DNA from: a virus
IMG/VR virus record: IMGVR_UViG_3300027881_000007
Span: 1 to 64,000 of that record
Reading direction: 5' to 3' (one strand)
DNA length: 64,000 nt
Shown: one piece after another, positions 1,905 through 54,517 of the stretch
How the letters are laid out: every line of letters begins with the position of its first letter
Position numbering within the stretch: the first letter of the stretch is position 1
Notes under the pieces: generated by a model
What the model saw: only the letters and a program-made list of their open reading frames with translations
Databases searched by the model: none
What the model was told of the DNA's origin: nothing
Translations under genes and position numbers: made by a program

Positions 1905-3887
1905 TTAGACGATGAAGAAGTTAAGTTCGATCTTCTCGACAACTCGCGTTGGATCCAGTATAATGTTAACGTGGAAGGTCTTCCTCTTCCTCTCATATTC
2001 AGTTGCACCAACTTCTACGTTGAAGTTGTACAAGCCTCTTCGCTTCCTAATGTCCTCTAAGAACAGAACAATATCACCTGATACCTGACTCCAGGTCAGC
2101 TGATCATTTTGCTCAAAGATGAAGTACCTACAGTACTCCTCAAGGGCCCTCTTGATGTAGAGAACCAGTCGGACAATGTTCAGGTCTTGCAAGGCACTTG
2201 CCTTTGCCTGACTTGTCAACTGACCCCAGACAACATAACCCGGGTTGAACTTCACAATTGGATTCAGCTGTTTGAGGTACATCTGGTCTCTCTGACCCAA
2301 CTTAGGATTGTAGCGGAGTTCTTTGATAGTATCAATTGCTGCTCGGTTGAAACCTGCAATAGCAAACCAGACTTCGGTTAAAGCATCATTTCTTGGCAAC
2401 AGATAAGACATATGGTACATTGGAGAGAACCATACATCTCTACCAGTGAAGATATCAAAGACCTTATTATAAGACTCATACAGAGCAACAAAGTAGTTGT
2501 TGAATGTATTAACGTCTGTCCTCTCTGAAATGGCAGAATTAAATGTGGGGTTGTCACCATTGTCAAGAATACCCACACAGTCACGCCTCGTTTGACACAG
2601 AGAAGAGATTTGCTGCTTGACTGAATTTGGATAACCAGCATCAAACACTGCGCTGATATAGATGTTCTCAGTGTCTAGTACATCATCAACCTGAGAAGAT
2701 CCATCTACTGTGCTAGTTAGAGCACCAGCATAAGCCTGAGCTAACAGTGTGGTTGCTTCTACAGTATCAAGGGTACCTGTTGCATCAATCAAATCGCCCT
2801 CTGAACCATATTTCAATGGAACAGGTTCTGCTGAGGTAAATGCATTTGCGATACTTGTATTTGACTGTCTGATTTCATAAGTAATAGCTGAAACCTCATC
2901 AAATACTGAGACATCGCCAACCCAAGATTGAGATGCACCTGTGAGGTTGCGAGCATCAAATACATTGACTGTATCGTCCTCTGAACCTCCAGCGGCACCT
3001 AACCATCCATAGAGTTGATTACCTCGGGCATCTTTTGCAACAACCATGTAAGTTGAATTTCCGGCCTCAGCTACATTTTCCCAGTCACTAAAAACTTGTT
3101 TGTTATCAGTGATGGTGGCTGAACCTGCAGTTTCAACTATGGTTACTGTACCAATATCTTTGTCGTAGCGTCTTGAGAGTATGTTATAACCTTCAGTCCA
3201 CTCACCGTTGGCCCTCACCATGTCTGCTCTTAAAAGAGTTGAGTAAGTATTAAGAACATCCATAATGAATAATGAGCTACCGGTGTCATCTTGAGCTTCT
3301 GGTCTGAAAGATATCTCAAAAGATTCTACAATAACATCATCTCCATCTGACTGTTTCTCATAAATATCCATCACGTAAACATCATTGAGTAGAGGATTCG
3401 AGATTTCAACAATTCTGATGGCAAGGTTGTTGTACCACTGACCTCTCCCTATTGGATAGATAAAACATAGGGGATAAGTGTCGCCAACAGCCTCTAGATT
3501 TGTAGTGATTTCTAACAATGAGTTTAGTGAATCGTCGTAACTAATTACAACTGAAGCTGTTGCATCAACAGCTGCGTAACTAGCATCAATTCTTATATTC
3601 GCAAATGTAGCATTATCCGGCAGTGGCCGAGTGAAGTACATTGCTCCAGATTCACCCAGGTAATTGTAGGCACAGTATAGACCTTGACCATAACTCTGTC
3701 CATAGGTTTCGATTTTTGGTTCACCATATTCACCGATTAATTCACTACGAGAACCAATGAATTTGAAAACATTGTCCTCGCCCTTCTCTGCCAACGCAAC
3801 GAAGTAACCAATTGTTCCAGGTACAGCTTGTACATACGTTGACAGATCAATAATTTTGGTATATACACCTGGAGAGATATTTGGCAT
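1905..3887 (-). CDS. contractile tail sheath protein
   Basis: N-terminal SPGVYTKIIDLS; C-terminal WFAIAGFNRA, LNPIV, VVWGQLT, LNIVRLVLYIK, FEQND, typical of sheath proteins. Confidence 0.95.
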   Translation of the reverse strand: MPNISPGVYTKIIDLSTYVQAVPGTIGYFVALAEKGEDNVFKFIGSRSELIGEYGEPKIETYGQSYGQGLYCAYNYLGESGAMYFTRPLPDNATFANIRIDASYAAVDATASVVISYDDSLNSLLEITTNLEAVGDTYPLCFIYPIGRGQWYNNLAIRIVEISNPLLNDVYVMDIYEKQSDGDDVIVESFEISFRPEAQDDTGSSLFIMDVLNTYSTLLRADMVRANGEWTEGYNILSRRYDKDIGTVTIVETAGSATITDNKQVFSDWENVAEAGNSTYMVVAKDARGNQLYGWLGAAGGSEDDTVNVFDARNLTGASQSWVGDVSVFDEVSAITYEIRQSNTSIANAFTSAEPVPLKYGSEGDLIDATGTLDTVEATTLLAQAYAGALTSTVDGSSQVDDVLDTENIYISAVFDAGYPNSVKQQISSLCQTRRDCVGILDNGDNPTFNSAISERTDVNTFNNYFVALYESYNKVFDIFTGRDVWFSPMYHMSYLLPRNDALTEVWFAIAGFNRAAIDTIKELRYNPKLGQRDQMYLKQLNPIVKFNPGYVVWGQLTSQAKASALQDLNIVRLVLYIKRALEEYCRYFIFEQNDQLTWSQVSGDIVLFLEDIRKRRGLYNFNVEVGATEYERKRKTFHVNIILDPTRVVEKIELNFFIV

Positions 3888-38534: not shown

Positions 38535-39497
38535 TCACCTTCCTACAAGAGTGTTATAATAGCAACCAACCTTACAAGACGCCAGAACTGCACACTCCTT
38601 ACACTTCTCAGATAACTCCATAATAGAGTTGGTCTTCATACGAGATCCCCTTTGAATCATATTAGTGATCTCATCCATCGTCTTAACATCACCATTATCC
38701 TTCAATATAGAACCAACTTTTATCCTCGTCTGATTGCAGTAATATAGTTCAAAATCATAGTCGATCAAACCCATATGTGTATCACCACAACAAGTTATCT
38801 TCGCAAAGTGAAGACCATCTAAATCGTGAAAACTTATCACATCCAACATATCCTGAGTATAGAAGCACATAGGCAAAACGTGATCATAACTGTGCGATAT
38901 ATTCCTCTTCCATAAGTTAGGTCCTATAGTAGTAACTACGTCAATCCACGATTCTCTATACTGGTTTAAGATATTGTCGTCAAACAAATCAACCTGTGTA
39001 TCCGGAGACAATATAATATGTACATATGGACCCAACTTCACACACTGATTTACCTTCTCAATCATCTCATCTATACCATTTAAGGGTACAACAAAGTGAA
39101 GGGACATACGACGTATAAGATCACCATACTCAGGGAACACATTGGGGTCAAATACAAAACCATTTACTGTAAACTGTAACTTGCCTTGAAAGTGATTCTT
39201 GACGACCACTCCATGTTTCGTGATCTCTTTCATCCTTGTACCATTGGTAAATATATTAACCATTCCATAGTGCTTACAGGACTCTATAACTACATCTATA
39301 AACCTAGGGTGAAGTGTAGGTTCCCCACCCATAATCTTCAACTCTTCTTGTTTTAAATGACCAGAGTTAACCTGCATAAACTTAATCAATACATCGGCAT
39401 CCATAGACCCCGTCATCCTGGCATCTGCATTGAAGCAGTGTGGACACGATGCATTACACAACTCTGTCAGAACTATCCTGTGGGCTAGTTGAATCAT
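38535..39497 (-). CDS. radical SAM protein with SPASM-like C-terminus
   Basis: CNASCPHC (CxxxCxxC), GGEPTLHP, FTNG; C-terminal CKECAVLASCKVGC. Confidence 0.92.
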   Translation of the reverse strand: MIQLAHRIVLTELCNASCPHCFNADARMTGSMDADVLIKFMQVNSGHLKQEELKIMGGEPTLHPRFIDVVIESCKHYGMVNIFTNGTRMKEITKHGVVVKNHFQGKLQFTVNGFVFDPNVFPEYGDLIRRMSLHFVVPLNGIDEMIEKVNQCVKLGPYVHIILSPDTQVDLFDDNILNQYRESWIDVVTTIGPNLWKRNISHSYDHVLPMCFYTQDMLDVISFHDLDGLHFAKITCCGDTHMGLIDYDFELYYCNQTRIKVGSILKDNGDVKTMDEITNMIQRGSRMKTNSIMELSEKCKECAVLASCKVGCYYNTLVGR

Positions 39498-42360: not shown

Positions 42361-42867
42361 CTATACAGTTACCTTTTTCAACTTTCCTCCAACCTTACCT
42401 ATATACTTATTAACCTTGGCCTTGCACTTAGTGGGATCCTTCGACTTATCACATGCTTTGATTGCTTGTTTAAGATCCAACAATTGTTGACTCAATGCAT
42501 TAATTCTATACTGTTTCATACATGCCGTTTTTTCTTCACCTGACCTATTAGCACATGCCTTAGACGCTGGACTATATTTAGCCTTATATAGTTTATATGA
42601 AAGATAGACCAACAACGCTGCTACAGCTATACCACCTATAGCGGTACCATATTTCCCAAAAAATGAAACGGATGATTTAGCATCAGGATATATCTTCCTT
42701 GCATTATCTTCCATTTGCTTAACCCATTCCCAGTCTACCTTAGGGTCAAGGTCTACATCCCCGGGTTTCATTGTTACATCTATTTCATCATAGTCCCACT
42801 CTATCTTTTCATCTAACATTAAGTACATCACATATTGGTCTATAATTAGTGATTCATATGACGGCAT
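42361..42867 (-). CDS. TM plus 4-Cys basic helical protein, paralogue of 35527-35874
   Basis: ASKAC..SGEEKTAC...KACDKSKDPTKCKAK aligns with AARTC..TGLDKTKC...GMCGKDKNPEACKAK. Confidence 0.7.
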   Translation of the reverse strand: MPSYESLIIDQYVMYLMLDEKIEWDYDEIDVTMKPGDVDLDPKVDWEWVKQMEDNARKIYPDAKSSVSFFGKYGTAIGGIAVAALLVYLSYKLYKAKYSPASKACANRSGEEKTACMKQYRINALSQQLLDLKQAIKACDKSKDPTKCKAKVNKYIGKVGGKLKKVTV

Positions 42868-42876
42868 ATAATCCTC

Positions 42877-43119
42877 CTATACTAGTTGCTCCATAGCGTC
42901 AATAATACCTCGTATATTAGTGCGACTATTAAGACAATCACATGGGGGTCTGCCAACACAATCACAAAAGGTTACCACCTGACAGTAAGGACACTTATAC
43001 CATACAGTCAACCTTTTATTACACCTTATACAGTTGACCTCATAATCCCTATCACCTAACTCATTGTCAATCATACGGACATTGAAAAGATGTTCATCCT
43101 GAGTATCAATCATATACAT
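42877..43119 (-). CDS. 8-Cys zinc-finger protein, triplet copy 3
   Basis: CIRC..CPYC..FCDC..CDC. Confidence 0.7.
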   Translation of the reverse strand: MYMIDTQDEHLFNVRMIDNELGDRDYEVNCIRCNKRLTVWYKCPYCQVVTFCDCVGRPPCDCLNSRTNIRGIIDAMEQLV

Positions 43120-43381
43120 GACCCCTACTAAGTATATCTTCTTTCAACTGTTTAGCTCCACACATTATAACCATATAATTCATACGTTCAATAAGGCATC
43201 TAATTTCTTTAGTCGTGGTCATACACCTACATACATATCCTGTGCAGTCACCACAGAAATATACCTTCTTACATGACGGACAATTAAAGCGATCCCCTGT
43301 ACGCATACCACAGTTGATGCAATATACAATCTCATCAATATCATCTATGATAATTAATTTTGCAGTTTTGCCTTTGATCAT
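43106..43381 (-). CDS. 8-Cys zinc-finger protein, triplet copy 2
   Basis: CINC..CPSC..FCGDC..CRC. Confidence 0.7.
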   Translation of the reverse strand: MIKGKTAKLIIIDDIDEIVYCINCGMRTGDRFNCPSCKKVYFCGDCTGYVCRCMTTTKEIRCLIERMNYMVIMCGAKQLKEDILSRGHVYD

Positions 43382-43390
43382 ATACGACCC

Positions 43391-43606
43391 CTACAGATTC
43401 AGTTGCTTCATCTCCTCAATAGTCTCTCTCAATATATTAATGAGAGTATCAGAACATCCACACAAAGGTTCTGCATGACAATCACAGAAATATACACTCC
43501 CACATTGAGGACAAGTATACCAATCCTCTACTGGTTCATTACACCTCATACAGTATAGTACAGTATCATCTATAATGGTTAAGTCTGGAGTTTCGCCCTT
43601 GATCAT
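43391..43606 (-). CDS. 8-Cys zinc-finger protein, triplet copy 1
   Basis: CMRC..CPQC..FCDC..CGC. Confidence 0.7.
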   Translation of the reverse strand: MIKGETPDLTIIDDTVLYCMRCNEPVEDWYTCPQCGSVYFCDCHAEPLCGCSDTLINILRETIEEMKQLNL

Positions 43607-43615
43607 ATATGACTC

Positions 43616-44419
43616 CTATATAGTTGGTGCTTTCTCTGGCCACTGCCCCATAGTGGGTTGTCCGGGCGGTATAACTTCTTCCTCTTGGGGTTTTGTATTT
43701 GAGGTTATATTTGTATTTTGTTCCTGTGGGGTATTTATTTGACCTATATGTTCAGTGTGTTCAGGGTCTTTTATGTAGGGTTTGTCAGAATCGAAGGGAG
43801 ACTGTTCCTTTTTGGACCTTTTGGAATTGAAGTATTCCTTTAGTTCAGGCGTGAGGTGGTGTAAACGGTTATTTGCGGATAGCATATCGAGCATATGGAT
43901 GAAGTGTACATATGGGTGGTAATCACGGAAGTTAAATTCGTCGGCATTCTTGACATCTGTAGACCATCGTCCTTGATGGAAGCGTAAACAGTCTTCTAGA
44001 ATGTCGTACATATCATCGGAATATAGTTGGAGGATGATTTCTCGGTTTTTCCTGAGCTTTTGTGCTGCGATCAAGTCGTGAGCATTTGCAGTATGAGATC
44101 GTTCTGTTGGATTTTCTCCATATTTCCAAGCGTCGTGCAACGCAATTGACAGGCATATGATGTCTGCATCAACTGATTTCGGTTCTGCTCCATACATCCT
44201 CATTACTTTAGTTGCTGCGTATAACATTTCATATGTATGCTCGATAACTGTCGGAACTCGCCCATCATCCTTATTGTGGTATTTCCCAGTTGACGAAGTT
44301 GGGCGTTGCCATATCGAATATATCTTAGTCAGCATTGCAGTCCACAACTTGAATCCATCCTCTGTCATGTTCTCTTTCAATAGATCATTCATCTCAGCTT
44401 CATAGTTCATGGTTGTCAT
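43616..44419 (-). CDS. HD-domain phosphohydrolase
   Basis: SSTGKYH, EHT, LHDAWKYG, FHQGRW and LDMLS. Confidence 0.85.
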   Translation of the reverse strand: MTTMNYEAEMNDLLKENMTEDGFKLWTAMLTKIYSIWQRPTSSTGKYHNKDDGRVPTVIEHTYEMLYAATKVMRMYGAEPKSVDADIICLSIALHDAWKYGENPTERSHTANAHDLIAAQKLRKNREIILQLYSDDMYDILEDCLRFHQGRWSTDVKNADEFNFRDYHPYVHFIHMLDMLSANNRLHHLTPELKEYFNSKRSKKEQSPFDSDKPYIKDPEHTEHIGQINTPQEQNTNITSNTKPQEEEVIPPGQPTMGQWPEKAPTI

Positions 44420-44491
44420 CCTCCCTTTCAGAGTTTCAAATTAATTCTATGTTTGCCTATGGCAACAGGTATTCAGAGTCTCATATCGCGT

Positions 44492-44522
44492 TATATACGC
44501 CGCTATATACACCGCTATACAT
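44492..44522. repeat. short 12-bp tandem repeat in an intergenic region
   Basis: TATATACGCCGC TATATACACCGC TATACAT. Confidence 0.55.
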
Positions 44523-44552
44523 AAACAACTGTTTACAAACATAAATTATTGT

Positions 44553-44876
44553 TTATGTCATCTTGTATGGATCAACTATAAGCCATTGCTCATACTCCCA
44601 CCGCCTCATATTAACTAATACATCACAATTGTCGTCGGTTCTAATAAAGATCCATCTTCGGGTGAAACCAGTTATGACCCCACGCTTACCTCTAACCTCT
44701 ACCTTCACATTAATGCTCAGTCTCTTATTGACCATGAAGTAGAAGTATGCGACCATGCTATCAATAAAGTTCTTGAGAGCTAACATGACTCCAAATGCAA
44801 TAAGAGTTTGAAATAGGAACCACCATAGTTGCGGTTTAACTGCTGTCATTATTTCCATCATCTCCTTCTGTCCCAT
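44553..44876 (-). CDS. small membrane protein resembling the MscS TM plus beta domain
   Basis: Hydrophobic N-half, then VEVRGKRGVITGF...IRTDD. Confidence 0.5.
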   Translation of the reverse strand: MGQKEMMEIMTAVKPQLWWFLFQTLIAFGVMLALKNFIDSMVAYFYFMVNKRLSINVKVEVRGKRGVITGFTRRWIFIRTDDNCDVLVNMRRWEYEQWLIVDPYKMT

Positions 44877-45258
44877 AACATATCTCCTTCTCTCTTAAGT
44901 ATTCTTTTACTATCTGTATAACTCGACTTCGTATGTCATTGAGCATTTTCTTAGTTCTTAGATGTTTTGGTTGATAAAGAGTCTCGTCGTCATAGAATTC
45001 CTGACCAATTCGTGAGTAAATCTCTTTTAAATGCTCACAAGACTCTGAACAGTTTACATATATTAGGCACTGTGAGCAAATTAGGTCATTTATCGGATCT
45101 GATAGGTTTTTCACTGTTGAGTCGATTTTGACCTGCTCACGTGGATCCTGCGTAAAAATTTTCTTTCTAATCATGGTGCATCCAACCGCCGCCTTTTCTA
45201 ACTTTTTATCTGGATGAGATTTTTTTATGGATCGGTCATACCCAATCTTGTATAGCAC
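44836..45258 (-). CDS. CxxCx5Cx3C family protein
   Basis: CSQCLIYVNCSESC. Confidence 0.7.
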   Translation of the reverse strand: MLYKIGYDRSIKKSHPDKKLEKAAVGCTMIRKKIFTQDPREQVKIDSTVKNLSDPINDLICSQCLIYVNCSESCEHLKEIYSRIGQEFYDDETLYQPKHLRTKKMLNDIRSRVIQIVKEYLREKEICYGTEGDDGNNDSS

Positions 45259-45476
45259 TAATTTTTTCCATCATGTAAGAGAATGATCCAGATGAAGGGG
45301 ATTAAGATAATAAGGAGCGTCATACAAACAATTAACTTAACGGGTTCCTTTAAAGCTCCTCTTCTCTCCTCTTGTCGCTCATACTTCCTCTTATCCTCAC
45401 AGGATATAGAACAAGCAGATATAATTAAGCAAGCGGGACAAGGATCCCTCAGTCGGGTAAACATCCACTTTTTCAT
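45258..45476 (-). CDS. CxxCx5Cx3C family protein with C-terminal TM
   Basis: CPACLIISACSISC and a hydrophobic tail. Confidence 0.7.
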   Translation of the reverse strand: MKKWMFTRLRDPCPACLIISACSISCEDKRKYERQEERRGALKEPVKLIVCMTLLIILIPFIWIILLHDGKN

Positions 45477-45710
45477 ACTCAAGATCCCACGAATTTTTTA
45501 GTATCCAATTTTTCACCCTATATAGGAGTTTCAACTCCATCTTCATCCACCTTAGAGTCCATATAGAAAATCAAACCCCCACATATAATCATATGGATAA
45601 AGAAAGCATTCCATAGACCCATAACAGGTAGACTAATGAAAATAGCAATTGCCATATTCAATACCACCAGGGTTATCCAAGGGTAGAACCACATTCAGTC
45701 TTCCCCCTCC

Positions 45711-46145
45711 CTACCTTATACCATTAATTATGTCATAATTCTTCTTCACAAAAGCAAGGGCCTTCTTTTTACCCTTCTCCTCCAACTTCCTCATTAATAC
45801 CTTAACTTTCTCATCCTTGTCTTTCAACCCTTGCATATTTTTATCTAATAGTTCATTATACTTTTTCTTCTTCTCAGGATCTGTGGTCTTAGTGATCACT
45901 TTCTTAAGGGCACTAATGGCACATCTCTGGTGACATAGGATTCCTAACTTGCCACTCTTTGACATATACTGAACATATAGCATCCCCGGAAGGGTACCTA
46001 ATAGGAATCCTGTTGCTGTCTTGGTACTCAACTTTAGTAGTTTATCACACCTTCTATTACATGGTATGACCTCTTTCATAAATTCTTTGCCATAATATGC
46101 TTCATGTATGTATAACTGTTCTAAATAGGTATCCATTATTTCCAT
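45711..46145 (-). CDS. putative capsid-internal protein (TM plus basic helix)
   Basis: GGAGGAG RBS before MEIMDTYLEQLYIHE leader. Confidence 0.6.
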   Translation of the reverse strand: MEIMDTYLEQLYIHEAYYGKEFMKEVIPCNRRCDKLLKLSTKTATGFLLGTLPGMLYVQYMSKSGKLGILCHQRCAISALKKVITKTTDPEKKKKYNELLDKNMQGLKDKDEKVKVLMRKLEEKGKKKALAFVKKNYDIINGIR

Positions 46146-46146
46146 C

Positions 46147-46335
46147 TTAACTCCTCCCCCTCCCCCTGTCCTCAATCCAATAAGGGGAATCCTCATCTAT
46201 ATTCAATAGTTTACCACAATGGTTACAGTATGCAGGGTACCCATCCATTACATAGGAAAATGTGTGCATACTCATACCTTTACATAGGGAGCAGACAAAT
46301 TTATCCAACCTCTCATAGTCTACAGCTTCTTTCAA
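46147..46335 (-). CDS. small zinc-ribbon protein
   Basis: CSLC...CNHC; GGAGG RBS with GTG start. Confidence 0.55.
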   Translation of the reverse strand: MKEAVDYERLDKFVCSLCKGMSMHTFSYVMDGYPAYCNHCGKLLNIDEDSPYWIEDRGRGRS

Positions 46336-46365
46336 TTTTTCACCTCCCTCTCCTTAGAACAATCC

Positions 46366-46821
46366 TTAAATGGTCATCTCTATATTCATTACTGTATCAG
46401 GATGCAATATCATATCGTCTTTGTTTATATGCCAATAGTCTTTAGTAGTACCACCAAACTTACGGGACATACCATCCCAATCTGCAATCATCTGTTTAAC
46501 ATACTTCATTGGCATAGGTATGGGGATTATCTCGTCTTTCCTAGTTACACTGACCCAATAATTCCAGTGGTGTTTATTTCTCTTTTGATGCCTTAACCAA
46601 CCCAACTGAAAGTTCATATTGTGTTCGTCAGACTGTTTGTACTCCTCGGTGCGATTTGTCTCATTAAAAAACCTTGCATATGGAATAAACTCTGACGGCA
46701 GAAACTTTGATAAATCATGGGTTATGCCATGGATGAATTGCCTAGACTTGACACACTCTATAAATACATTCCATTTATGCTCACACACATACCAAAAGTA
46801 TCTCCAGTACATACTACTCAA
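46366..46821 (-). CDS. DUF5662-like HD-related protein
   Basis: HKWNV, HDLSKF, HQKRNKHH and MIADW. Confidence 0.8.
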   Translation of the reverse strand: MSSMYWRYFWYVCEHKWNVFIECVKSRQFIHGITHDLSKFLPSEFIPYARFFNETNRTEEYKQSDEHNMNFQLGWLRHQKRNKHHWNYWVSVTRKDEIIPIPMPMKYVKQMIADWDGMSRKFGGTTKDYWHINKDDMILHPDTVMNIEMTI

Positions 46822-46956
46822 CCTCTTGTTCTCTTATATCAGAACAATCCTCACAGGTATATTCCATCTCCTCTCCTACAAGGAAACATACCACAGGTTC
46901 ATTACTTATCATAGGGTCTATCTGTTTATTACAGTCAGAACAGTTCACATTAACTC

Positions 46957-47220
46957 CTATATATGCAGGAACAATGATGCCATAGCTCCACCAAATAATA
47001 TTACCCAAAATATCAACTTCATAGCTTCCACTGTATCAAATAGGTTCTTCCTAATCACACCACACCTACTATTATATAAAATACATTGCTCACACACTTC
47101 AGTACATATAGTTTCAATGAGGCATCTCTCACAGGGGTTTCTTAGTATCTTAACCCTGTTGAGTCCTTCTATCAACTTGTCATCCCATATCCATTGACGG
47201 TCATCCATATTGTCATCCAT
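46957..47220 (-). CDS. CxxCx5Cx3C family protein with C-terminal TM
   Basis: CERCLIETICTEVC. Confidence 0.7.
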   Translation of the reverse strand: MDDNMDDRQWIWDDKLIEGLNRVKILRNPCERCLIETICTEVCEQCILYNSRCGVIRKNLFDTVEAMKLIFWVILFGGAMASLFLHI

Positions 47221-47262
47221 CCCAACTCCTACCTTGAAAACTCAGAGTCCAAGTCCGAATTT

Positions 47263-47673
47263 TCATTGAGGTCCATACTTGGGTAATGTGATCCAGGGTT
47301 TTTTGTATTCAGTCTTGCTAAAACTAACCTTCTCTGAATAATAACCATTTGATTCACCTAACCATCTAATGGTCACAGAACCTATAATGGTTGACAACTT
47401 ATAGAATGTCCATGTAAAACTCTCACTACCATACTCCACAGAGTGGTCGTGCTTCTCATTACTAACAACCTCTTCGGCCAACAGTATGGGGTTACCAATT
47501 AAATCCTTTAAATCTCCAACAACATCCACGATGTTGACGGTTTCACATCAGTCTTTGGCATGATACATCTTATATATATCACCTTCTTCGGTGGTAAATG
47601 TCATCTCCGTACTGCCTACATTACCATTGATCTCCTTTATGATCTCATTTTTCATTTCTTCGAACCTTGCCAC
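47263..47673 (-). CDS. conserved phage protein (YHxxD-U-CE); predicted selenoprotein (TGA at 47548-47550)
   Basis: GGAGG RBS plus GTG at 47673, in frame through [12 protein letters not shown] into [16 protein letters not shown]...[18 protein letters not shown]. Confidence 0.8.
47516..47540 (-). promoter_or_regulatory. putative bacterial SECIS hairpin
   Basis: CCGT-CAACATC-GTG-GATGTTG-TTGG; loop starts 18 nt after the TGA and begins with G. Confidence 0.65.
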
Positions 47674-47963
47674 TTGTCGTCCCTCCGCCTCAATTCAAAT
47701 TGATACTCATTACCGTCCCTGAACTCCAGCCTGTGGATACACAACTCCCACCATAGTAGTTTAATGGACTTCCATTTTAGTTTGATTGTCATCTTCAACT
47801 CCTTGAACTCTTCCATCAACTTAATGTATTCGTCTGCAGCTATCTTATCTATAATATAAGTAGAACTCATGAGGCTGTGTCTTTCTAATCTCTGTATGAT
47901 ATTGTTCTTCATCCTTTCGATGACTCTATCTATTGCATCATTCCATCCTTTGTAATAGTCCAT
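47652..47963 (-). CDS. hypothetical protein
   Basis: Tiled ORF starting MDYYKGWNDAI. Confidence 0.6.
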   Translation of the reverse strand: MDYYKGWNDAIDRVIERMKNNIIQRLERHSLMSSTYIIDKIAADEYIKLMEEFKELKMTIKLKWKSIKLLWWELCIHRLEFRDGNEYQFELRRRDDKWQGSKK

Positions 47964-47969
47964 AATCCG

Positions 47970-48287
47970 TCACTCTACGAGAGTGTCCACAATATAGTTT
48001 AGGTTTTCTATTAACTCGTCCTCACTAACCTTATATGTACATCCTCCTAACCATCCCATCATTGCTCCATAAACTGTATGATAATTCTGACACGCTCCAC
48101 TACATATAGTGAATACTAGACAGTCTGTGCATATTTCTCTAACAACCAATGTTACTACGGCCATTAAATCCCATCCACTTCGAATGATCTTTGTGTGATC
48201 TTGTGCGGCCAAGTTTATACTGCTATGGTTGTATTTGAAGTCTGCCACACTGGGGATAATGTCAATTTTCTTCATGATTGCTGTCAT
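47970..48287 (-). CDS. CxxCx5Cx3C family protein
   Basis: CTDCLVFTICSGAC. Confidence 0.7.
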   Translation of the reverse strand: MTAIMKKIDIIPSVADFKYNHSSINLAAQDHTKIIRSGWDLMAVVTLVVREICTDCLVFTICSGACQNYHTVYGAMMGWLGGCTYKVSEDELIENLNYIVDTLVE

Positions 48288-48543
48288 CTTCTTCTTTAAA
48301 CTCCTTTAATATAGTCCAGAACTTCTCTTCTATTCTCTTTTTAGATACATTTAGGTCAGCTATATCTACTAACCATTTCCACATACGACCATAGACCGCG
48401 TCGAAACTAGGGCAACCTATGGTGCAAGTCGATACCACGAGACATTCCTTACAGAGGTTTTCGTCTATTAGGGGTCTGGTTGTCTCTGTGGCATCTTGAT
48501 ATAATGCCTCGACCCTCACTTCGAGGTCATGTATGTTGGACAT
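48262..48543 (-). CDS. CxxCx5Cx3C family protein
   Basis: CKECLVVSTCTIGC. Confidence 0.7.
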   Translation of the reverse strand: MSNIHDLEVRVEALYQDATETTRPLIDENLCKECLVVSTCTIGCPSFDAVYGRMWKWLVDIADLNVSKKRIEEKFWTILKEFKEEDDSNHEEN

Positions 48544-48763
48544 CCTTTATAATCTCCTTGAAGTCTATTATATTCCAAAAGTCCGTAAAACCTTGACAGG
48601 GTAATTTCCAACCCATATGTGTAGAACGCCAGTTGGTATCACCCCACATACCAATGCTGATTTTAGATTCGCCACACCTCTCACAGTACCACATCTCTCC
48701 GCCACCAATCCATTTGTGGGTACGGTCATATCTATAGACTTCTCTATCACTTATAGTTGTCAT
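48527..48763 (-). CDS. small Zn-binding protein
   Basis: HKW...CERCG...C. Confidence 0.5.
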   Translation of the reverse strand: MTTISDREVYRYDRTHKWIGGGEMWYCERCGESKISIGMWGDTNWRSTHMGWKLPCQGFTDFWNIIDFKEIIKDVQHT

Positions 48764-48971
48764 ACTTAGACTTCCAGGGCTTCCAGTAGTAGGGACAATA
48801 TAAACCTTTTTTACCTGCCTGGGGGCTGTGGCAATAACATACTCTACCTATCTTTATTCCGTGCATACAATAACCTTTTATATTCATTTTATGCCACTCA
48901 CATTCATTTTGTCTACTTTTAAATTCTATGATAATTCTCCACTCACATAGTCTAAACCGAGGCACTCCCAT
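48747..48971 (-). CDS. small Cys-rich protein
   Basis: Tiled ORF with 6 Cys. Confidence 0.45.
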   Translation of the reverse strand: MGVPRFRLCEWRIIIEFKSRQNECEWHKMNIKGYCMHGIKIGRVCYCHSPQAGKKGLYCPYYWKPWKSKYDNYK

Positions 48972-49213
48972 AGGTCTTCTCTTAAACTACCATATACCCA
49001 CCAAGTGCAATGCTCTCGTCTTATAGTGTGACAAGTAACACAAGTTTTGAATGTATTGAATCGACCATCCCATTTACCATTAACTCTTTCATACTTCTGC
49101 CCTGGTAGAATCGGTTCACCACATTCACAACACTTATGGGTCTTCCTGGCAACTACAACCTTCTCTGTAGCAAACTCAGGCATATCGCCCGTGTCATTAC
49201 ATACACATTTCAT
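48926..49213 (-). CDS. phage zinc-finger protein
   Basis: ARKTHKCCECG..I.PG..Y...CVTC. Confidence 0.7.
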   Translation of the reverse strand: MKCVCNDTGDMPEFATEKVVVARKTHKCCECGEPILPGQKYERVNGKWDGRFNTFKTCVTCHTIRREHCTWWVYGSLREDLWECLGLDYVSGELS

Positions 49214-49500
49214 GTTGAATCTCCAATCTCTATTTGCTTGTTCTTAAATAGGTTTTCGTGACCCTGAAAACCAGGGAACAGCTGATAATAAGATAGTCCA
49301 TCTGCCTTAATTTCATCTAATTCAACAGATAAATGTGTAGGTATAAAGTCTCCTGAATATTCAGAACTTTTATTTGAGAGGTATATATTTGTAACTATAT
49401 GTCCAGTCTCTTGATGGAATTTATATAATAGTTGGGCAAGTCGGGATTCAAGTTCACACCTCTTCTTCTTTATTTTCTCTAGGTCTTTCATCTTCTTCAT
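49210..49500 (-). CDS. hypothetical protein
   Basis: AAGGAG RBS, coupled to neighbours. Confidence 0.6.
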   Translation of the reverse strand: MKKMKDLEKIKKKRCELESRLAQLLYKFHQETGHIVTNIYLSNKSSEYSGDFIPTHLSVELDEIKADGLSYYQLFPGFQGHENLFKNKQIEIGDST

Positions 49501-49501
49501 T

Positions 49502-49747
49502 TCAACTCCTTCTCTTTGAGGACTTAGACTTCAGTTTCTTGATTTTGTGTCCCTTCACTTTGTGAGGTGGCAACTTATAACCTACAAGCTCCCCCGAGAA
49601 TCTGCCAAATACATCCATGGGTTTTAGTCTTTTATTGCACACGGGACATCTATATTTCTTATCATTATCGTCGAACCATGCTTCACCAGTACACCAGTCG
49701 CTCATTCTAAATCTCCCATGACCTCCCTTACCTTCTCGCTTGCTCAA
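49502..49747 (-). CDS. small basic zinc-finger protein
   Basis: C...CPVC...PPH. Confidence 0.55.
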   Translation of the reverse strand: MSKREGKGGHGRFRMSDWCTGEAWFDDNDKKYRCPVCNKRLKPMDVFGRFSGELVGYKLPPHKVKGHKIKKLKSKSSKRRS

Positions 49748-50108
49748 CTAAACCTTCTATTCTGTCTAATATTCCTAAGTAATTTAATTCGCCGGCCGTG
49801 TACTTGTGCTCATTATCATTTAACCACTGTACCATGCTTTTATATGTATCTAAGTACTCTGAACACACAACTTTACACACTGGGTCAACTAAACATTCCC
49901 CACATACTACACCTGATATAACAGTTAGTACTTCTCTAGCCGTGGGACCACACTCAAATTTATAGTTTAAACCTATCATCTTAATATTTACTGTTGGCTT
50001 CTTACATCCCTTTAGTTGTTGGTGTTCCTTCGAACCGGACGGGATGTTTATATAAATGGGGTCTACTGCTGTTAATTTATCTCTCATTATTTCCATCAAT
50101 TCCCCCAA
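49728..50108 (-). CDS. CxxCx5Cx3C family protein
   Basis: CGECLVDPVCKVVC. Confidence 0.7.
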   Translation of the reverse strand: MGELMEIMRDKLTAVDPIYINIPSGSKEHQQLKGCKKPTVNIKMIGLNYKFECGPTAREVLTVISGVVCGECLVDPVCKVVCSEYLDTYKSMVQWLNDNEHKYTAGELNYLGILDRIEGLVEQARR

Positions 50109-50326
50109 GTCTCTACTAACTCGTCTAGTTTTATTTTGAACTCATCTTCTGTAACATTGTATCCTTTTATCCTGGAGAACCAACTTATCATTGTTCCATG
50201 TATCATGGAGTAGTTGTGACATGACATTTCACATATGAAACCAACCAGGCAGTCCTTACATACAACTTCCTCTATAGCAATTAATATATGTCTACCCCAT
50301 CCCGGTTTCCATTCTACTTGCTCCAC
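50096..50326 (-). CDS. CxxCx5Cx3C family protein
   Basis: CKDCLVGFICEMSC. Confidence 0.7.
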   Translation of the reverse strand: MEQVEWKPGWGRHILIAIEEVVCKDCLVGFICEMSCHNYSMIHGTMISWFSRIKGYNVTEDEFKIKLDELVETWGN

Positions 50327-50574
50327 GTTTCACCCTTCTTCCTCTGTATTACACTCATTGCCTGCCTGAGAAAATGTTGCTCAACCTTCTTTGTATAGGG
50401 ACGACTTTTGTCTATTCTACCAGTTGCACGTTCCGCCCAATCATACTTTCCTCTGCCGTCACAATGAGGACATACAATTGCCTCTGGTTCAAATGGTTCA
50501 TCATTCGTGGGTGCTAATACTAGTCCAACTCCACTACATTGACCACATAAATATTCACCCTCTTTTAATCTCAC
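50314..50574 (-). CDS. DnaJ-type CxxCxGxG zinc-finger protein
   Basis: CGQCSGVG and CPHCDGRG. Confidence 0.7.
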   Translation of the reverse strand: MRLKEGEYLCGQCSGVGLVLAPTNDEPFEPEAIVCPHCDGRGKYDWAERATGRIDKSRPYTKKVEQHFLRQAMSVIQRKKGETWSK

Positions 50575-50815
50575 TAAATCTATCCTTCCATGTTTCGTGT
50601 GTAATCAATATAGCCTTCGCTCGATGTGAGAGTATACCTTTAGCTTCAAATACTTCCCATAGTTCATCACAGACTTCACTACAGTTCATAAACAATATGC
50701 AGTCACTACATTTCTCTTCGACTACCTGAGTTGCCTTGTCGGCCATCTCACTCCAGTCTTGTTTGTTCTTCGTTATTTCTCTTGGGAATAGTTTCACTTT
50801 ATATAATCTCCCCAT
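50555..50815 (-). CDS. CxxCx5Cx3C family protein
   Basis: CSDCILFMNCSEVC. Confidence 0.7.
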   Translation of the reverse strand: MGRLYKVKLFPREITKNKQDWSEMADKATQVVEEKCSDCILFMNCSEVCDELWEVFEAKGILSHRAKAILITHETWKDRFSEIKRG

Positions 50816-51000
50816 CTATCAACTACATGTCTCACTCGATGTGCCATACTTACAGGGGTTATGAGATCTAAAGGGATATTGATATTATTCTCCCTTAATA
50901 CCTCGTATAAGTCGACACAGGATTCGCTACATCTGGTGTACAATAGGCATCCCTGACATTTCTCTAAAATAATTTCAACTAATCTTTCAGCTTCTCTCAT
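50794..51000 (-). CDS. CxxCx5Cx3C family protein
   Basis: CQGCLLYTRCSESC. Confidence 0.7.
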   Translation of the reverse strand: MREAERLVEIILEKCQGCLLYTRCSESCVDLYEVLRENNINIPLDLITPVSMAHRVRHVVDRWGDYIK

Positions 51001-51216
51001 TTAATACTTATTCCTCCACGCATTCCGTATGAGTATACCCATTACTCGATGTGTATAGATTTTCTCCCTTTCAAATTCGCTCCACAACTCATCACAGACT
51101 TCACTACAATTCACTTGTACTATACACTTTTTACAATGTCCTCTAATAAGTTTAAGAGCTCTATCCACTTTTTCATTATCTGATAGTTCACGATCCTTCA
51201 TATGGAACCTCTTCAC
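51001..51216 (-). CDS. CxxCx5Cx3C family protein
   Basis: CKKCIVQVNCSEVC. Confidence 0.7.
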   Translation of the reverse strand: MKRFHMKDRELSDNEKVDRALKLIRGHCKKCIVQVNCSEVCDELWSEFEREKIYTHRVMGILIRNAWRNKY

Positions 51217-51463
51217 TTGTAACAGTATGCTTAAGAAACTTAACCATAGTTAGAATGTCTTTTTCTTCCATATCCCCTTGTGCTTTAATCCTCTCTAGAG
51301 AGGTCATGTATATCTCATTAAACTCGGGGCAAATGTCAGAGCATGTTGTACTAACTAAACAATCAGGACAGAGCACTTTGACTATTGTAATCGCCATTAC
51401 TCTTATCGCTCTGGCTGGAACTTGAGGTTGATTCGTTGCTTTGTGACTATAACTATGTCTCAT
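51188..51463 (-). CDS. CxxCx5Cx3C family protein
   Basis: CPDCLVSTTCSDIC. Confidence 0.7.
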   Translation of the reverse strand: MRHSYSHKATNQPQVPARAIRVMAITIVKVLCPDCLVSTTCSDICPEFNEIYMTSLERIKAQGDMEEKDILTMVKFLKHTVTSEEVPYEGS

Positions 51464-51693
51464 TTTAGAGCATCCAGTATGGCAACTACATGGTTGCCCG
51501 TCGCACCACAGTAACCATTATATGCTTCTGGAACATTAATGTCCCACGTCTTAATAACATCCCACACAGCGTTAAATTCAGGTGTCTCCAGTTCTTCTGG
51601 TAGTGGATCTCTCCACTCGATTGGGTTCTTCAGTTCATTCACTTCTTTCACTTCTCTCTTCATTCGCTTGTCTCCTTTTAACCAAATAACCAA
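51460..51693 (-). CDS. hypothetical protein
   Basis: PEFNAVWDVIKTWDINVP...GATGNHV; start may be MKREV at 51663. Confidence 0.65.
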   Translation of the reverse strand: MVIWLKGDKRMKREVKEVNELKNPIEWRDPLPEELETPEFNAVWDVIKTWDINVPEAYNGYCGATGNHVVAILDALK

Positions 51694-51908
51694 TGAGCAA
51701 AGTCTAACAGTACCATATCTCTAAACTTTAAAATGAATCCATATAATCCGAAAACAATCAAAACTAGATATAAAAATCCTAAGAACATCGCAATAGTTGC
51801 TAGTGCAGATGCCAGGACTGCCAACCAGTGAAGTATTTTACGCCACCAGGGCAGTCCGGCATACCATTTTTCAAATGGTTTAGGATATTTCTGTTTAACT
51901 TTTGCCAC
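51678..51908 (-). CDS. small membrane protein
   Basis: Long hydrophobic segment. Confidence 0.55.
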   Translation of the reverse strand: MAKVKQKYPKPFEKWYAGLPWWRKILHWLAVLASALATIAMFLGFLYLVLIVFGLYGFILKFRDMVLLDFAHWLFG

Positions 51909-52064
51909 TGCAAAATCCTATGCTTATCATTTCTTAAATAAAGATTTAACCCACTCAACAAACTTATCAACGTACTTCTTCACCAACGCTGGTTGTGCAA
52001 TAAAATTCCAACCAACTATTAAACCTATTCCAAAACTAATAATAAGGTCCATAATAATTGCCTC

Positions 52065-52271
52065 CTAGTATGGTATGATTGTGATTAAATCGGCCACCCC
52101 ATAACCTCCGTGGCCATTGCCCTCGCAGTTGTGCATATTAAATAGATGATCTCGGGGCACTTTGAATGTATTACTAATTAGGACATCCTGTAAAATTTTA
52201 TCTGGTACTATTTTCTCTTCTTTGTAAGTTAGTCCACAGTTTCTACAAGTGTAGACGAACTCGTTTTCCAT
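52065..52271 (-). CDS. small zinc-ribbon protein
   Basis: CRNCG...HNC. Confidence 0.55.
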   Translation of the reverse strand: MENEFVYTCRNCGLTYKEEKIVPDKILQDVLISNTFKVPRDHLFNMHNCEGNGHGGYGVADLITIIPY

Positions 52272-52486
52272 GTTCCCTCCTCCTTCATTCGTTGTATATC
52301 ACTGACTTTTGTAAGATGACACCCACAAGTACACCATGTGAATCTTTTATCCTTTTCAAATAGTTCATATTCCTTTTCTTGTTTAAATCTTTCTATTGAT
52401 TCTGGAGACCATGTTTGATTACAGTTGTAGCATTTCCATAACCATCTATAATCATCTGGAAGTTTTCCCATTGTTTTTACTCCCAA
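52229..52486 (-). CDS. small zinc-ribbon protein
   Basis: CYNC...CTCG. Confidence 0.5.
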   Translation of the reverse strand: MGVKTMGKLPDDYRWLWKCYNCNQTWSPESIERFKQEKEYELFEKDKRFTWCTCGCHLTKVSDIQRMKEEGTWKTSSSTLVETVD

Positions 52487-52668
52487 TAAATACAGTCAAC
52501 GGGGCACACTTCCATTGCCTCTGCTATACATTCTTGATCAGTACTATCTGGGTCGATAACTTCTGCCAGCTCTGTGGACTCATTAAAACGAAATATGTCA
52601 GGACATACAATGACACAATTTTCACATCCATTACATTCATCCGCATCTATTCTAACTCCTTTAGCCAT
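52477..52668 (-). CDS. fdx: single-cluster [4Fe-4S] ferredoxin
   Basis: CNGCENCVIVCP...EAMEVCPVDCI (CxxCxxC plus distal CP), acidic, 63 aa; AAGGAG RBS. Confidence 0.92.
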   Translation of the reverse strand: MAKGVRIDADECNGCENCVIVCPDIFRFNESTELAEVIDPDSTDQECIAEAMEVCPVDCIYWE

Positions 52669-52679
52669 ACCTAACTCCT

Positions 52680-52907
52680 TTATGTATATTGATGATTCTT
52701 CTGTTCTTTCACATCTCTTGCCATTGATAATAACTCCGCTTTACGTTCAACTGTTCTATCGTGATGTCTAGTGTCTGCACACATTATCATTAGATAATCT
52801 ATGCCTTCACAGTATTCACTACAAGTTGCTCTAACTATACAACCTTTACATACTATTTCTTTAATTGCTTTCTTACATTCATTATACATACGAATATGTT
52901 CTTTCAT
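52680..52907 (-). CDS. CxxCx5Cx3C family protein
   Basis: CKGCIVRATCSEYC. Confidence 0.7.
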   Translation of the reverse strand: MKEHIRMYNECKKAIKEIVCKGCIVRATCSEYCEGIDYLMIMCADTRHHDRTVERKAELLSMARDVKEQKNHQYT

Positions 52908-53266
52908 CTACGGTCCTCTGCAAGTTTTCTCTTAAACGCATCTACACATCTTCCGCATATGTCATATTCTTCTTTAAGTTTTTCAATGTATGATTCGCTT
53001 CCGTCCCATACTTGTTTAGAAGGATACAAATCAATACCGCAGCATCCTCGGGATGATCCTCCTTTTATGTGCACTTTCTTAGATTTTGAGGTCTGTTTAA
53101 CAATTAGAACAAGTTTTCTAGTACCAACTCTTGCCTTTGCTCGTCTTTTCCTTCTTCTTTCTTCTAGTATAAAGTCTGGAACTACTCCACCAAATATGGA
53201 TCTACAGGGACCCATGTGTGCCTTTCCACAATCCCAACACCGATCAGTCATCTTCGTCTCCTTCAC
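52904..53266 (-). CDS. basic Cys-containing hypothetical protein
   Basis: CWDCG..H..C and CGRC. Confidence 0.55.
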   Translation of the reverse strand: MKETKMTDRCWDCGKAHMGPCRSIFGGVVPDFILEERRRKRRAKARVGTRKLVLIVKQTSKSKKVHIKGGSSRGCCGIDLYPSKQVWDGSESYIEKLKEEYDICGRCVDAFKRKLAEDRR

Positions 53267-53289
53267 TATTCACAGATACTCATCTTCAC

Positions 53290-53556
53290 TTATACATATA
53301 CTCCAACAATGATGCCACCGATTGTAAAAAATAAAAGATCTAATGCTGTATCGTCCCAATGACCTATAGGCCATTGATCAATTGTTTCTCGGGGTAGACC
53401 TAATAGAAAACCGCTTATCCCTCCCATGTACCAGTTGGGATTACTAGCTATAGGGTATAATGCAATTGCTGCCCAAGCTAAGTGAAAGAGTTGATCAAGT
53501 CTTTTTCTCCATGTCTTACCAATCAATTCATCAATCTTGTCTTTAATAGCCATCAT
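53290..53556 (-). CDS. small membrane protein
   Basis: DQLFH, RETID and DL motifs with TM segments. Confidence 0.6.
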   Translation of the reverse strand: MMAIKDKIDELIGKTWRKRLDQLFHLAWAAIALYPIASNPNWYMGGISGFLLGLPRETIDQWPIGHWDDTALDLLFFTIGGIIVGVYV

Positions 53557-53761
53557 CTTCCCCTTTAGTTAGTCCTTTCGCACTATCTATAGCTAATTGC
53601 TTAACCTCATCTGGAGACAACCTTCTACCTATTCTCCCCTCTATTGTATTCATTTGTCTATAAACGGGATTGAAAACTTCGCGATATGTATCGCACGGCA
53701 TATCACAAGTAGCATGAACTATACAACCTTTACATATTATCTCGACGACTTCTTCGATCAT
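53543..53761 (-). CDS. CxxCx5Cx3C family protein
   Basis: CKGCIVHATCDMPC. Confidence 0.7.
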   Translation of the reverse strand: MIEEVVEIICKGCIVHATCDMPCDTYREVFNPVYRQMNTIEGRIGRRLSPDEVKQLAIDSAKGLTKGEDDGY

Positions 53762-53769
53762 TATACTTC

Positions 53770-53985
53770 CTATGGAGAAGGTTTTAAGGCAACTCTTCTG
53801 ATTGCTTCTTCGTTTACAATGTAACTAAGATACTCGGCATTACCCACTAGTTTTTTGCACCCAGTACAATATACTCTAGGAATTCCACTTCCCTCCCATG
53901 CTAAGGGAGTTTCATGGGTCTCTCCACATTTGGGGCATATACACTCAGTAGGCACTTTCTTTAACTCGGGTCCTATTCTCCGCAT
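53770..53985 (-). CDS. small zinc-finger protein
   Basis: CPKCG...CTGC; AGGAGG RBS. Confidence 0.6.
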   Translation of the reverse strand: MRRIGPELKKVPTECICPKCGETHETPLAWEGSGIPRVYCTGCKKLVGNAEYLSYIVNEEAIRRVALKPSP

Positions 53986-53994
53986 TACTGCCTC

Positions 53995-54402
53995 CTAGAA
54001 TATAGCACCAAGTTTGCGAACCAGTAGATCCCATAGACTAACCGCTTTATCCCAATAAGCAACTACAAGGAAAAGCGTATTAATCATAGTCATAATGACA
54101 ATGATAGCAGTGTAACCAACAACTTTTCTGGAATACTTTTTAACCATCATAGATGATATAACTGAAGCAACAGCCTGAGATGTAATTATTCTTTGTAGGG
54201 ATTCAACTTCTCCCAAGTAATATTTTACACCACTGTCTGAATAGTAAAATATTCGCCTCAGTAAATCCTCTGGTCCTTCTTTCAACCAGGACTTTGTTAA
54301 CTCCATCGACTCATTGTTGGCATGTACCTTAATATCGTCGGGCACCTCTTTCTTATTTTTATTAATTTCTTTTAATACTTCTTCAAGTTTCTCTTCGCTC
54401 AT
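53995..54402 (-). CDS. membrane protein
   Basis: C-terminal TM segment. Confidence 0.6.
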   Translation of the reverse strand: MSEEKLEEVLKEINKNKKEVPDDIKVHANNESMELTKSWLKEGPEDLLRRIFYYSDSGVKYYLGEVESLQRIITSQAVASVISSMMVKKYSRKVVGYTAIIVIMTMINTLFLVVAYWDKAVSLWDLLVRKLGAIF

Positions 54403-54517
54403 CGGACGACCCTTTGATTAAAGATTTAAGTCTAGAGAAGAACCTGCCCATATACCTTCCAATTACAATACCTATAAAGGTATAGAGGAGTGGTTCATAT
54501 TCAGCAAATTTCATTGT

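Follow-up and report, generated by a model that had tools for sequence, protein, structure and literature searches.

The cysteine spacing C-x2-C-x5-C-x3-C has been described in three kinds of metal-binding domain. In SPASM domains, CX2CX5CX3C binds [4Fe-4S] and stands within the seven-cysteine motif CX9-15GX4C-gap-CX2CX5CX3C-gap-C (PMC6231123); in domain Fd2 of the polyferredoxin MvhB, CX2CX5CX3CP binds [4Fe-4S] (PMC13580544); and in the MYND zinc finger a helix comes after C-X2-C-X5-C-X3-C (bioRxiv 10.1101/2025.06.19.660640). In each of the three, the four cysteines are split between two metal centres, and these require additional ligands (PMC6231123, PMC13580544, bioRxiv 10.1101/2025.06.19.660640). 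Here we analysed a 64,000-nt stretch of viral DNA (positions 1 to 64,000 of IMG/VR record IMGVR_UViG_3300027881_000007, hereafter the window), in which 13 open reading frames (ORFs) of 68–140 amino acids (aa), lying between 44,836 and 53,761 on the minus strand, each carry C-x2-C-[LI][VIL]-x3-C-x3-C. Judged from their sequences, the 13 appear to be paralogues of long standing, from a family of small cytoplasmic proteins that has not been described.

The family shares with SPASM (TIGR04085, PF13186) the identical CX2CX5CX3C and the hydrophobic residues after the second cysteine, but it is stand-alone (56–140 aa), has no radical S-adenosylmethionine (SAM) core, and lacks both the upstream CX9-15GX4C and the downstream eighth cysteine of the seven-cysteine motif. 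The elongated ferredoxin motif of MvhB Fd2 has the same cysteine spacing; ferredoxin domains possess two motifs that exchange the fourth ligand, whereas family members have one (except P0012) and usually no proline after Cys4. The MYND finger has the shared spacing with a helix after it, and MYND and HIT fingers resemble the family in the serine that often follows Cys3, but they hold two zinc ions with eight ligands in a cross-brace, and their first CxxC and final HxxxC are missing from the family. The WhiB-like (Wbl) proteins of Actinobacteria and actinophages are likewise small, helical and phage-encoded, and a helix follows their C-x2-C-x5-C core; in them, however, the first cysteine lies 14–22 residues upstream, there is no cysteine at +4, and a G[VI]WGG turn is present that the family lacks. 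Finally, the paralogous small-gene families of large-phage variable regions also form tandem one-strand clusters with fast divergence, gain and loss, whereas here 13–16 copies all keep an invariant four-cysteine module and each is an old orthogroup.

Thirteen small proteins encoded in one array share a four-cysteine module

Through a six-frame regular-expression scan of the window, 13 strict matches to C..C[LIVM][VILM]...C...C were obtained, all on the minus strand and inside the 13 ORFs for which a preliminary description of this DNA had claimed exactly this spacing. Across 50 shuffled versions of the window no strict match arose, and the loose spacing occurred at a mean of 0.02. In the window itself, the loose spacing was found in frame at just two further places, a non-genic frame at 17000 and the C-terminus of a radical SAM protein (38562-38603, CKECAVLASCKVGC), whose ending in this spacing had also been noticed before. 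Over the whole 113,344-bp contig no further family member was found, and the spacing occurred in no real gene other than at that radical SAM C-terminus. A hidden Markov model (HMM) of the family core gave 13 matches on the contig at E<=1.3e-10, with the next ORF at E=0.11, and did not detect the radical SAM C-terminus. The members are listed below, with the percent identity to the orthologue.

44836..45258, minus strand: member 1, listed length 140 aa; motif CSQCLIYVNCSESC, positions 45037-45078; HMM match at E=7e-15; orthologue P0172, 87%
45258..45482, minus strand: member 2, 74 aa, C-terminal transmembrane (TM) tail; motif CPACLIISACSISC; HMM match; orthologue P0182, 96%
46957..47220, minus strand: member 3, 87 aa, C-terminal TM tail; motif CERCLIETICTEVC; HMM match; orthologue P0010, 72%
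47970..48287, minus strand: member 4, 105 aa, true start probably codon 5; motif CTDCLVFTICSGAC; HMM match; orthologue P0006, 54%
48262..48543, minus strand: member 5, 93 aa; motif CKECLVVSTCTIGC; HMM match; orthologue P0019, 45%
49728..50108, minus strand: member 6, 126 aa, true start probably the ATG at codon 5; motif CGECLVDPVCKVVC; HMM match; G002 orthologue, 38-48%
50096..50326, minus strand: member 7, 76 aa, structure modelled with AlphaFold2 (AF2); motif CKDCLVGFICEMSC; HMM match
50555..50815, minus strand: member 8, 86 aa; motif CSDCILFMNCSEVC; HMM match; paralogue 51001 at E=7e-16
50794..51000, minus strand: member 9, 68 aa; motif CQGCLLYTRCSESC; HMM match; G002 orthologue, 49%
51001..51216, minus strand: member 10, 71 aa, true start probably the ATG at codon 6; motif CKKCIVQVNCSEVC; HMM match; orthologue P0004, 74%
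51188..51463, minus strand: member 11, 91 aa; motif CPDCLVSTTCSDIC; HMM match; orthologue P0005, 78%
52680..52907, minus strand: member 12, 75 aa; motif CKGCIVRATCSEYC; HMM match; G002 orthologue, 65%
53543..53761, minus strand: member 13, 72 aa, motif from residue 10; motif CKGCIVHATCDMPC; HMM match; orthologue P0008, 63%

As judged from Shine-Dalgarno motifs and the starts of the orthologues, the listed starts of 47970, 49728 and 51001, and perhaps those of 44836, 45258 and 50555, probably lie a few codons too far upstream. The position of the motif varies among the members, from residue 10 to residue 69, and seven of the 13 have no cysteine beyond the four of the motif; the site therefore appears to be self-contained. 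Hydropathy confirms the two TM tails claimed earlier, with Kyte-Doolittle 19-mer values of 3.09 in 45258-45482 and 2.16 in 46957-47220.

Conservation and descent of the family

The four cysteines are invariant in 49–52 aligned family sequences, which comprise the 13 of the window and relatives on other contigs. Among the 52 sequences, position +4 is always L/I and +5 always V/I/L, −5 is hydrophobic in 90%, and +16, +19 and +20 are hydrophobic or aromatic in 73–88%; Ser/Thr stands directly after Cys3 (+10, S/T in 77%), an acidic residue directly after Cys4 (+14, D/E in 69%), and aromatic positions lie beyond. The shared module thus spans about 26 residues and reads [IV]-x3-[hydrophobic or P]-C-x2-C-[LI]-[VIL]-x3-C-[ST]-x2-C-[ED]-x-[LYF]-x2-[VIY]-[YF].

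Pairwise BLAST joined the 13 proteins into a network with two visible subgroups and clear pairs in 50555/51001 (E=7e-16) and 47970/50096 (E=7e-11). Further, when the cysteines were masked and each member was scored with an HMM built from the other 12 paralogues, eight of the 13 outscored all 1,804 background ORFs and five did not. Most members are thus related beyond the cysteine spacing, a point on which the preliminary description had made its reading depend. Given the BLAST network, the column conservation, the masked test and the tandem clustering on one strand, common descent with deep divergence seems the only reasonable reading of these sequences.

For all 13, a relative was found elsewhere that shows 45–96% identity over nearly the full length, whereas the best paralogue in the same genome mostly shows 23–41% identity, over part of the length. 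Orthologues being far closer than paralogues, the array consists of 13 old orthogroups and does not result from a recent burst. The HMM, BLAST and orthologue data bear out the greatly expanded paralogous family of small four-cysteine proteins that had been proposed. The surroundings of the array allow its rate of change to be gauged, as window positions 42.3-57.6 kb are syntenic with 248.5-263.9 kb of a complete relative (G002). Positional orthologues were found there for eight of the 13 members at 38–65% identity, compared with 58–85% for the flanking genes, and the other five have no orthologue there, which indicates that the family evolves faster than its surroundings and undergoes gain and loss.

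Searched with a profile, 1.84 billion representative proteins yielded only 40 matches at E<=1e-3, all of 56–123 aa and none large, and a 5.8-billion-cluster collection yielded 25 unnamed metagenome proteins; in these database searches the family was seen only in phage-type and metagenome contigs. In deposited phage genomes, no match was obtained with megablast of the region or with tblastn of two family members. Among five relatives of the source contig, G001 has 14 matches and G002 has 16 (in both, a main array plus scattered copies), G003 has four, while none was found in G004 and G005. The architectures vary: TM-tailed forms comprise two window members and six database members, a TM-tailed NPCKKCLV group occurs among the distant members, P0012 is a tandem double module, and in L025:209-1017, L026:539-889 and L099:1342-1752 the four-cysteine module is fused to a C-terminal CPDCGG...CxxC zinc-ribbon-like domain.

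Comparison with known families and a possible iron-sulfur site

No family in Pfam, PHROGs or NCBIfam covers these proteins, so that the match to a well-characterised family that the preliminary description had considered did not appear in any of the three. The Protein Atlas gave no usable match, a word-index search with one member returned only that member itself, and literature searches on the spacing and on cysteine-rich phage families did not turn up this family. The family matches no described family, and the stand-alone form of the spacing is undescribed in the literature searched.

The sole recurrent signal was a set of sub-threshold TIGR04085 matches in 10 of 49 members (best E=0.002, under the 27-bit cut-off), which fall on the CX2CX5CX3C segment; other stray matches were mostly to iron-sulfur (Fe-S) proteins, namely Fer4_8, Fer4_10, NuoI, TfrB and FDH-beta. 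On the contig, neither PF13186 (SPASM) nor PF02467 (WhiB) gave a match at E<=10, the latter in a search in which a control genome set did yield matches. Aligning the family with the phage's own radical SAM family by hhalign gave 17% probability over 19 columns, covering the motif only. The likeness to SPASM that had been drawn from the radical SAM C-terminus is thus confined to the motif, and the likeness to WhiB found no counterpart in the profile search. Profile matches to the PDB were led for the family profile by zf-HIT of Bcd1 (E=0.11) and included a defensin segment (E=0.09), neither of them meaningful.

Membership in the candidate families was rejected on the following grounds: for SPASM, scores below the TIGR04085 cut-off, no PF13186 match, the missing rest of the seven-cysteine motif and no PF04055; for WhiB, no PF02467 match at E<=10, no conserved upstream cysteine and no GxWGG column in the alignment; for MYND/HIT, only four invariant ligands and no zf-MYND or zf-HIT match at E<=0.05 among 49 members; and for the ferredoxins (Fer4 clan), which are characterised by CX2CX2CX3CP-type motifs, only two lone sub-threshold matches, to Fer4_8 (17.9 bits) and Fer4_10 (16.4 bits).

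The weak profile matches bear on an explanation that we regard as rather unlikely but worth weighing, namely that the module forms one half of a SPASM-type or elongated-ferredoxin-type site and stands alone. Cys1–3 would then ligate one [4Fe-4S] cluster while Cys4 supplied a ligand to another in a partner subunit, and the resulting homo- or heterodimers would bridge the two clusters. Such microproteins could be redox or O2/NO sensors like WhiB and FNR, or small electron donors for the several radical SAM enzymes of the phage; the O2-sensing regulators and Fe-S sinks of the preliminary description would be conjectures of this kind. The cluster loops of EndoIII, FNR and WhiB also carry the pattern C-x2-C-(hydrophobic)2-x3-C. 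In addition to the TIGR04085 and stray Fe-S matches, this explanation is favoured by the binding of [4Fe-4S] by the same spacing in SPASM (PMC6231123) and MvhB Fd2 (PMC13580544), by the five radical SAM genes of the complete relative and the ferredoxin encoded in the window, and by the natural tandem double module of P0012, which fits two motifs acting together. Nevertheless, every SPASM match lies under the cut-off, the hhalign and Pfam results given above argue against it, the ferredoxin does not accompany the family in relatives, and 14 residues with four cysteines are also the size of a single-zinc knuckle. To our knowledge, a ligand four residues past the third does not reach the same cubane; an Fe-S model therefore needs dimerisation, which is itself a prediction. 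In a more specific version, which we consider improbable, the same or different paralogues would pair around two bridging [4Fe-4S] clusters with the 3+1 ligand swap of ferredoxins and SPASM, and would form a combinatorial set of dimers that respond to O2 or redox state, or would serve the radical SAM enzymes as private electron donors.

The ferredoxin lies between members 11 and 12.

52477..52668, minus strand: single-cluster ferredoxin in the array; Pfam Fer4_13 E=3.4e-13

Its presence within the array, as had been stated, was thereby borne out, but its link to the family was not, since it has no homologue in any of the five relatives (G001-G005), which include the complete genome with 16 family members. 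It is therefore probably not part of the system, and its position looks incidental.

Predicted structure and a proposed metal-held module

With the family alignment as input, AF2 predicted three helices for 50096-50326 at a mean predicted local distance difference test (pLDDT) score of 75, a moderate confidence. The first helix covers residues 11–22, C23 and C26 lie in the loop that follows it, a helix starting at residue 32 carries C32 and C36 in its first turns, and the last helix covers residues 60–74. The Ser/Thr at +10 and the acidic residue at +14, which follow Cys3 and Cys4, resemble a helix N-cap. A second model (50555-50815) was all-helical but weak (pLDDT 59), too weak to use. Structure searches with Foldseek against PDB and BFVD and with VIA-align against 48,161 chains returned only generic helical matches (best Z 7.2; none at E<=0.001).

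Since basic residues precede the TM tails, the module of the TM-tailed members is suggested to face the cytoplasm, where thiols stay reduced. This topology bears on whether the cysteines form two disulfides or redox-active dithiols without any metal, for which we see very little probability: four invariant cysteines arranged as CxxC and CxxxC could in principle pair, and the weak PDB match to a defensin segment would agree with it, but the members have no signal peptides, the TM-tailed ones place the module on the side where disulfides are rare, and in no member of this phage, which may use selenocysteine (Sec) as judged from an in-frame TGA, is a cysteine replaced by Sec.

Starting from the observed family, its conservation pattern and its rarity, and from the predicted helix, loop, helix layout, we infer metal binding, a structural role of the metal and a host-directed function from sequence and model. 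The explanation that we favour, tentatively and at a little under an even chance, is that a metal-held mini-domain scaffolds diversified accessory proteins of the phage. In the module, one helix would end in the Cys-x2-Cys knuckle and the next would start with Cys-[ST]-x2-Cys; the four invariant cysteines would hold one metal centre that locks both helices, and this lock would let a protein of 60–100 residues fold. Outside the module, the paralogues differ (helical bundles, membrane anchors, and zinc ribbons in relatives), whereas orthologues agree, and each paralogue could have a partner of its own and act separately, in an accessory or host-takeover role. The variable effectors put forward in the preliminary description fit this anatomy of a conserved core with variable appendages.

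Several observations weigh against the metal-held mini-domain. The AF2 confidence over the motif is only 67–71, five members are linked mainly by the motif and the hydrophobic pair, and a one-metal monomer is without precedent, because every documented context of the spacing is a two-centre site. As to the metal itself, the weak profile matches and the five radical SAM genes of the lineage incline us to an Fe-S cluster, which would come close to an even bet; the compact 14-residue layout of four cysteines and the 3+1 ligand rule that known Fe-S motifs follow incline us to a single zinc ion, which would be about as likely since MYND zinc fingers include the same spacing; and the third case, neither of the two, would be unlikely.

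Radical SAM genes near the array

The radical SAM protein whose C-terminus repeats the cysteine spacing is encoded at lower window coordinates than the array.

38535..39497, minus strand: radical SAM protein whose near-threshold SPASM domain ends in the Cys spacing of the family; PF04055 E=1.3e-10; TIGR04085 25.8 bits against the cut-off of 27

Its own family comprises at least 125 clusters at 38–74% identity, which come almost entirely from metagenome and phage-type contigs, and the protein has no Cys-tailed neighbour. Five radical SAM genes were counted in the complete relative G002, four above the Pfam cut-off and one just below. The anaerobic ribonucleotide reductase NrdD, used as a host marker, is absent from the source contig and from G002, and a load of five radical SAM genes is unusually high for a phage.

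These genes raise the question of whether the family members are substrates of the radical SAM/SPASM enzymes, with the cysteine motif as a core that is crosslinked in the style of ranthipeptides or sactipeptides to give stapled microproteins, which we consider quite improbable. For the 38535-39497 enzyme, the best NCBIfam match is the ranthipeptide maturase PapB, over the N-terminal core only. Between its gene and the array there are 5.3 kb in the source contig and about 2.2 kb in G002, and the gene is adjacent to the array also in G001. However, about ten unrelated genes intervene in the source contig, and at eight loci of its orthologues (37–49% identity) no family member was found within 10 kb, five of those contigs having none at all. 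For a second radical SAM gene (344 aa, CNLSCGYC; L108:1306-2637 in G001, L148-L151), a family member stops directly at its ATG: one or two members end there in G001, G002 and relatives in which the enzyme is 86% identical. At 51–61% identity, by contrast, the orthologues of this second enzyme have no family member upstream and are preceded by other small cysteine-containing ORFs or none, and most members, here and in G002, adjoin no radical SAM gene. The proteins themselves continue after the motif into folded helical domains or TM tails rather than showing a leader/core layout, and they have no conserved C-x3-D/E acceptor pattern. Because the distant orthologue loci of both enzymes are without members, the gene order is suggestive of a link to radical SAM enzymes within one lineage only; the link implied in the preliminary description is kept in G001 and G002 and absent in more distant phages.

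Genomic context and source genome

The array lies in an island (window positions 42800-54450, 11.6 kb) of about 40 small genes with a mean length of 94 aa and 25 CxxC pairs. The genes abut or overlap and lie mostly on one strand. Its cysteine content is 3.75%, compared with 1.47% elsewhere on the contig, and many zinc-ribbon-like genes are also located there. No enrichment of promoter-like or terminator-like sites was found in the array.

Other genes of this region were recorded as follows. At 42877-43606 (minus strand), three tandem paralogues of 80, 91 and 71 aa share eight invariant cysteines in the pattern CxxC-x9-CPxC-x5-CxC-x5/6-CxC, possibly a cross-brace two-zinc finger; G002 has a single matching stretch for this eight-cysteine family, at 259,058-259,249. 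Inside the array, 50314-50574 (minus strand) encodes 86 aa with two CxxCxGxG repeats of the DnaJ central-domain type (sub-threshold, E=1e-3), with a G002 homologue at 53%. Two ORFs at 47263-47673 (minus strand) are joined in frame by a single TGA, and readthrough would give 136 aa containing ...YHAKD-U-CE.... Interleaved with or flanking the array are a DUF5662 protein (46366-46821, minus strand, E=1e-31) and an HD-domain protein (43616-44419, minus strand, phrog_5889 E=4e-22) with a G002 homologue at 69%. A second cluster of small ORFs with at least two CxxC is located at about 101.2-103.8 kb of the contig.

The 113,344-bp contig has a CheckV completeness of 36%. Within the window the large genes are all on the minus strand, and besides the radical SAM gene they include glycosyltransferases, a protease and the following tail gene.

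1905-3887, minus strand: contractile tail sheath; PHROG tail sheath E=1e-64

Against deposited phage genomes, the sheath shows only ~25–31% identity. Its relatives in IMG/VR include contigs of 186–277 kb, among them G002, a complete 277,131-bp genome with terminal repeats; the source contig is therefore best taken, on this sequence evidence, as a fragment of an uncultured jumbo myovirus.

Discussion

New inhibitors and modulators of bacterial machinery come mainly from small phage proteins, most of which lack a recognisable fold. Here, one phage lineage reuses a compact four-cysteine module of about 26 residues 13–16 times per genome, with varied appendages. Such a module would be a natural scaffold for tiny binders and offers a convenient entry for pull-down studies. 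If the cysteines were to bind Fe-S, the family would represent a new class of stand-alone cluster proteins made from a mere fragment of SPASM or ferredoxin domains; if they were to bind zinc, it would be a minimal zinc finger of a new type. A database entry for the family is warranted either way, as Pfam, PHROGs and NCBIfam have none.

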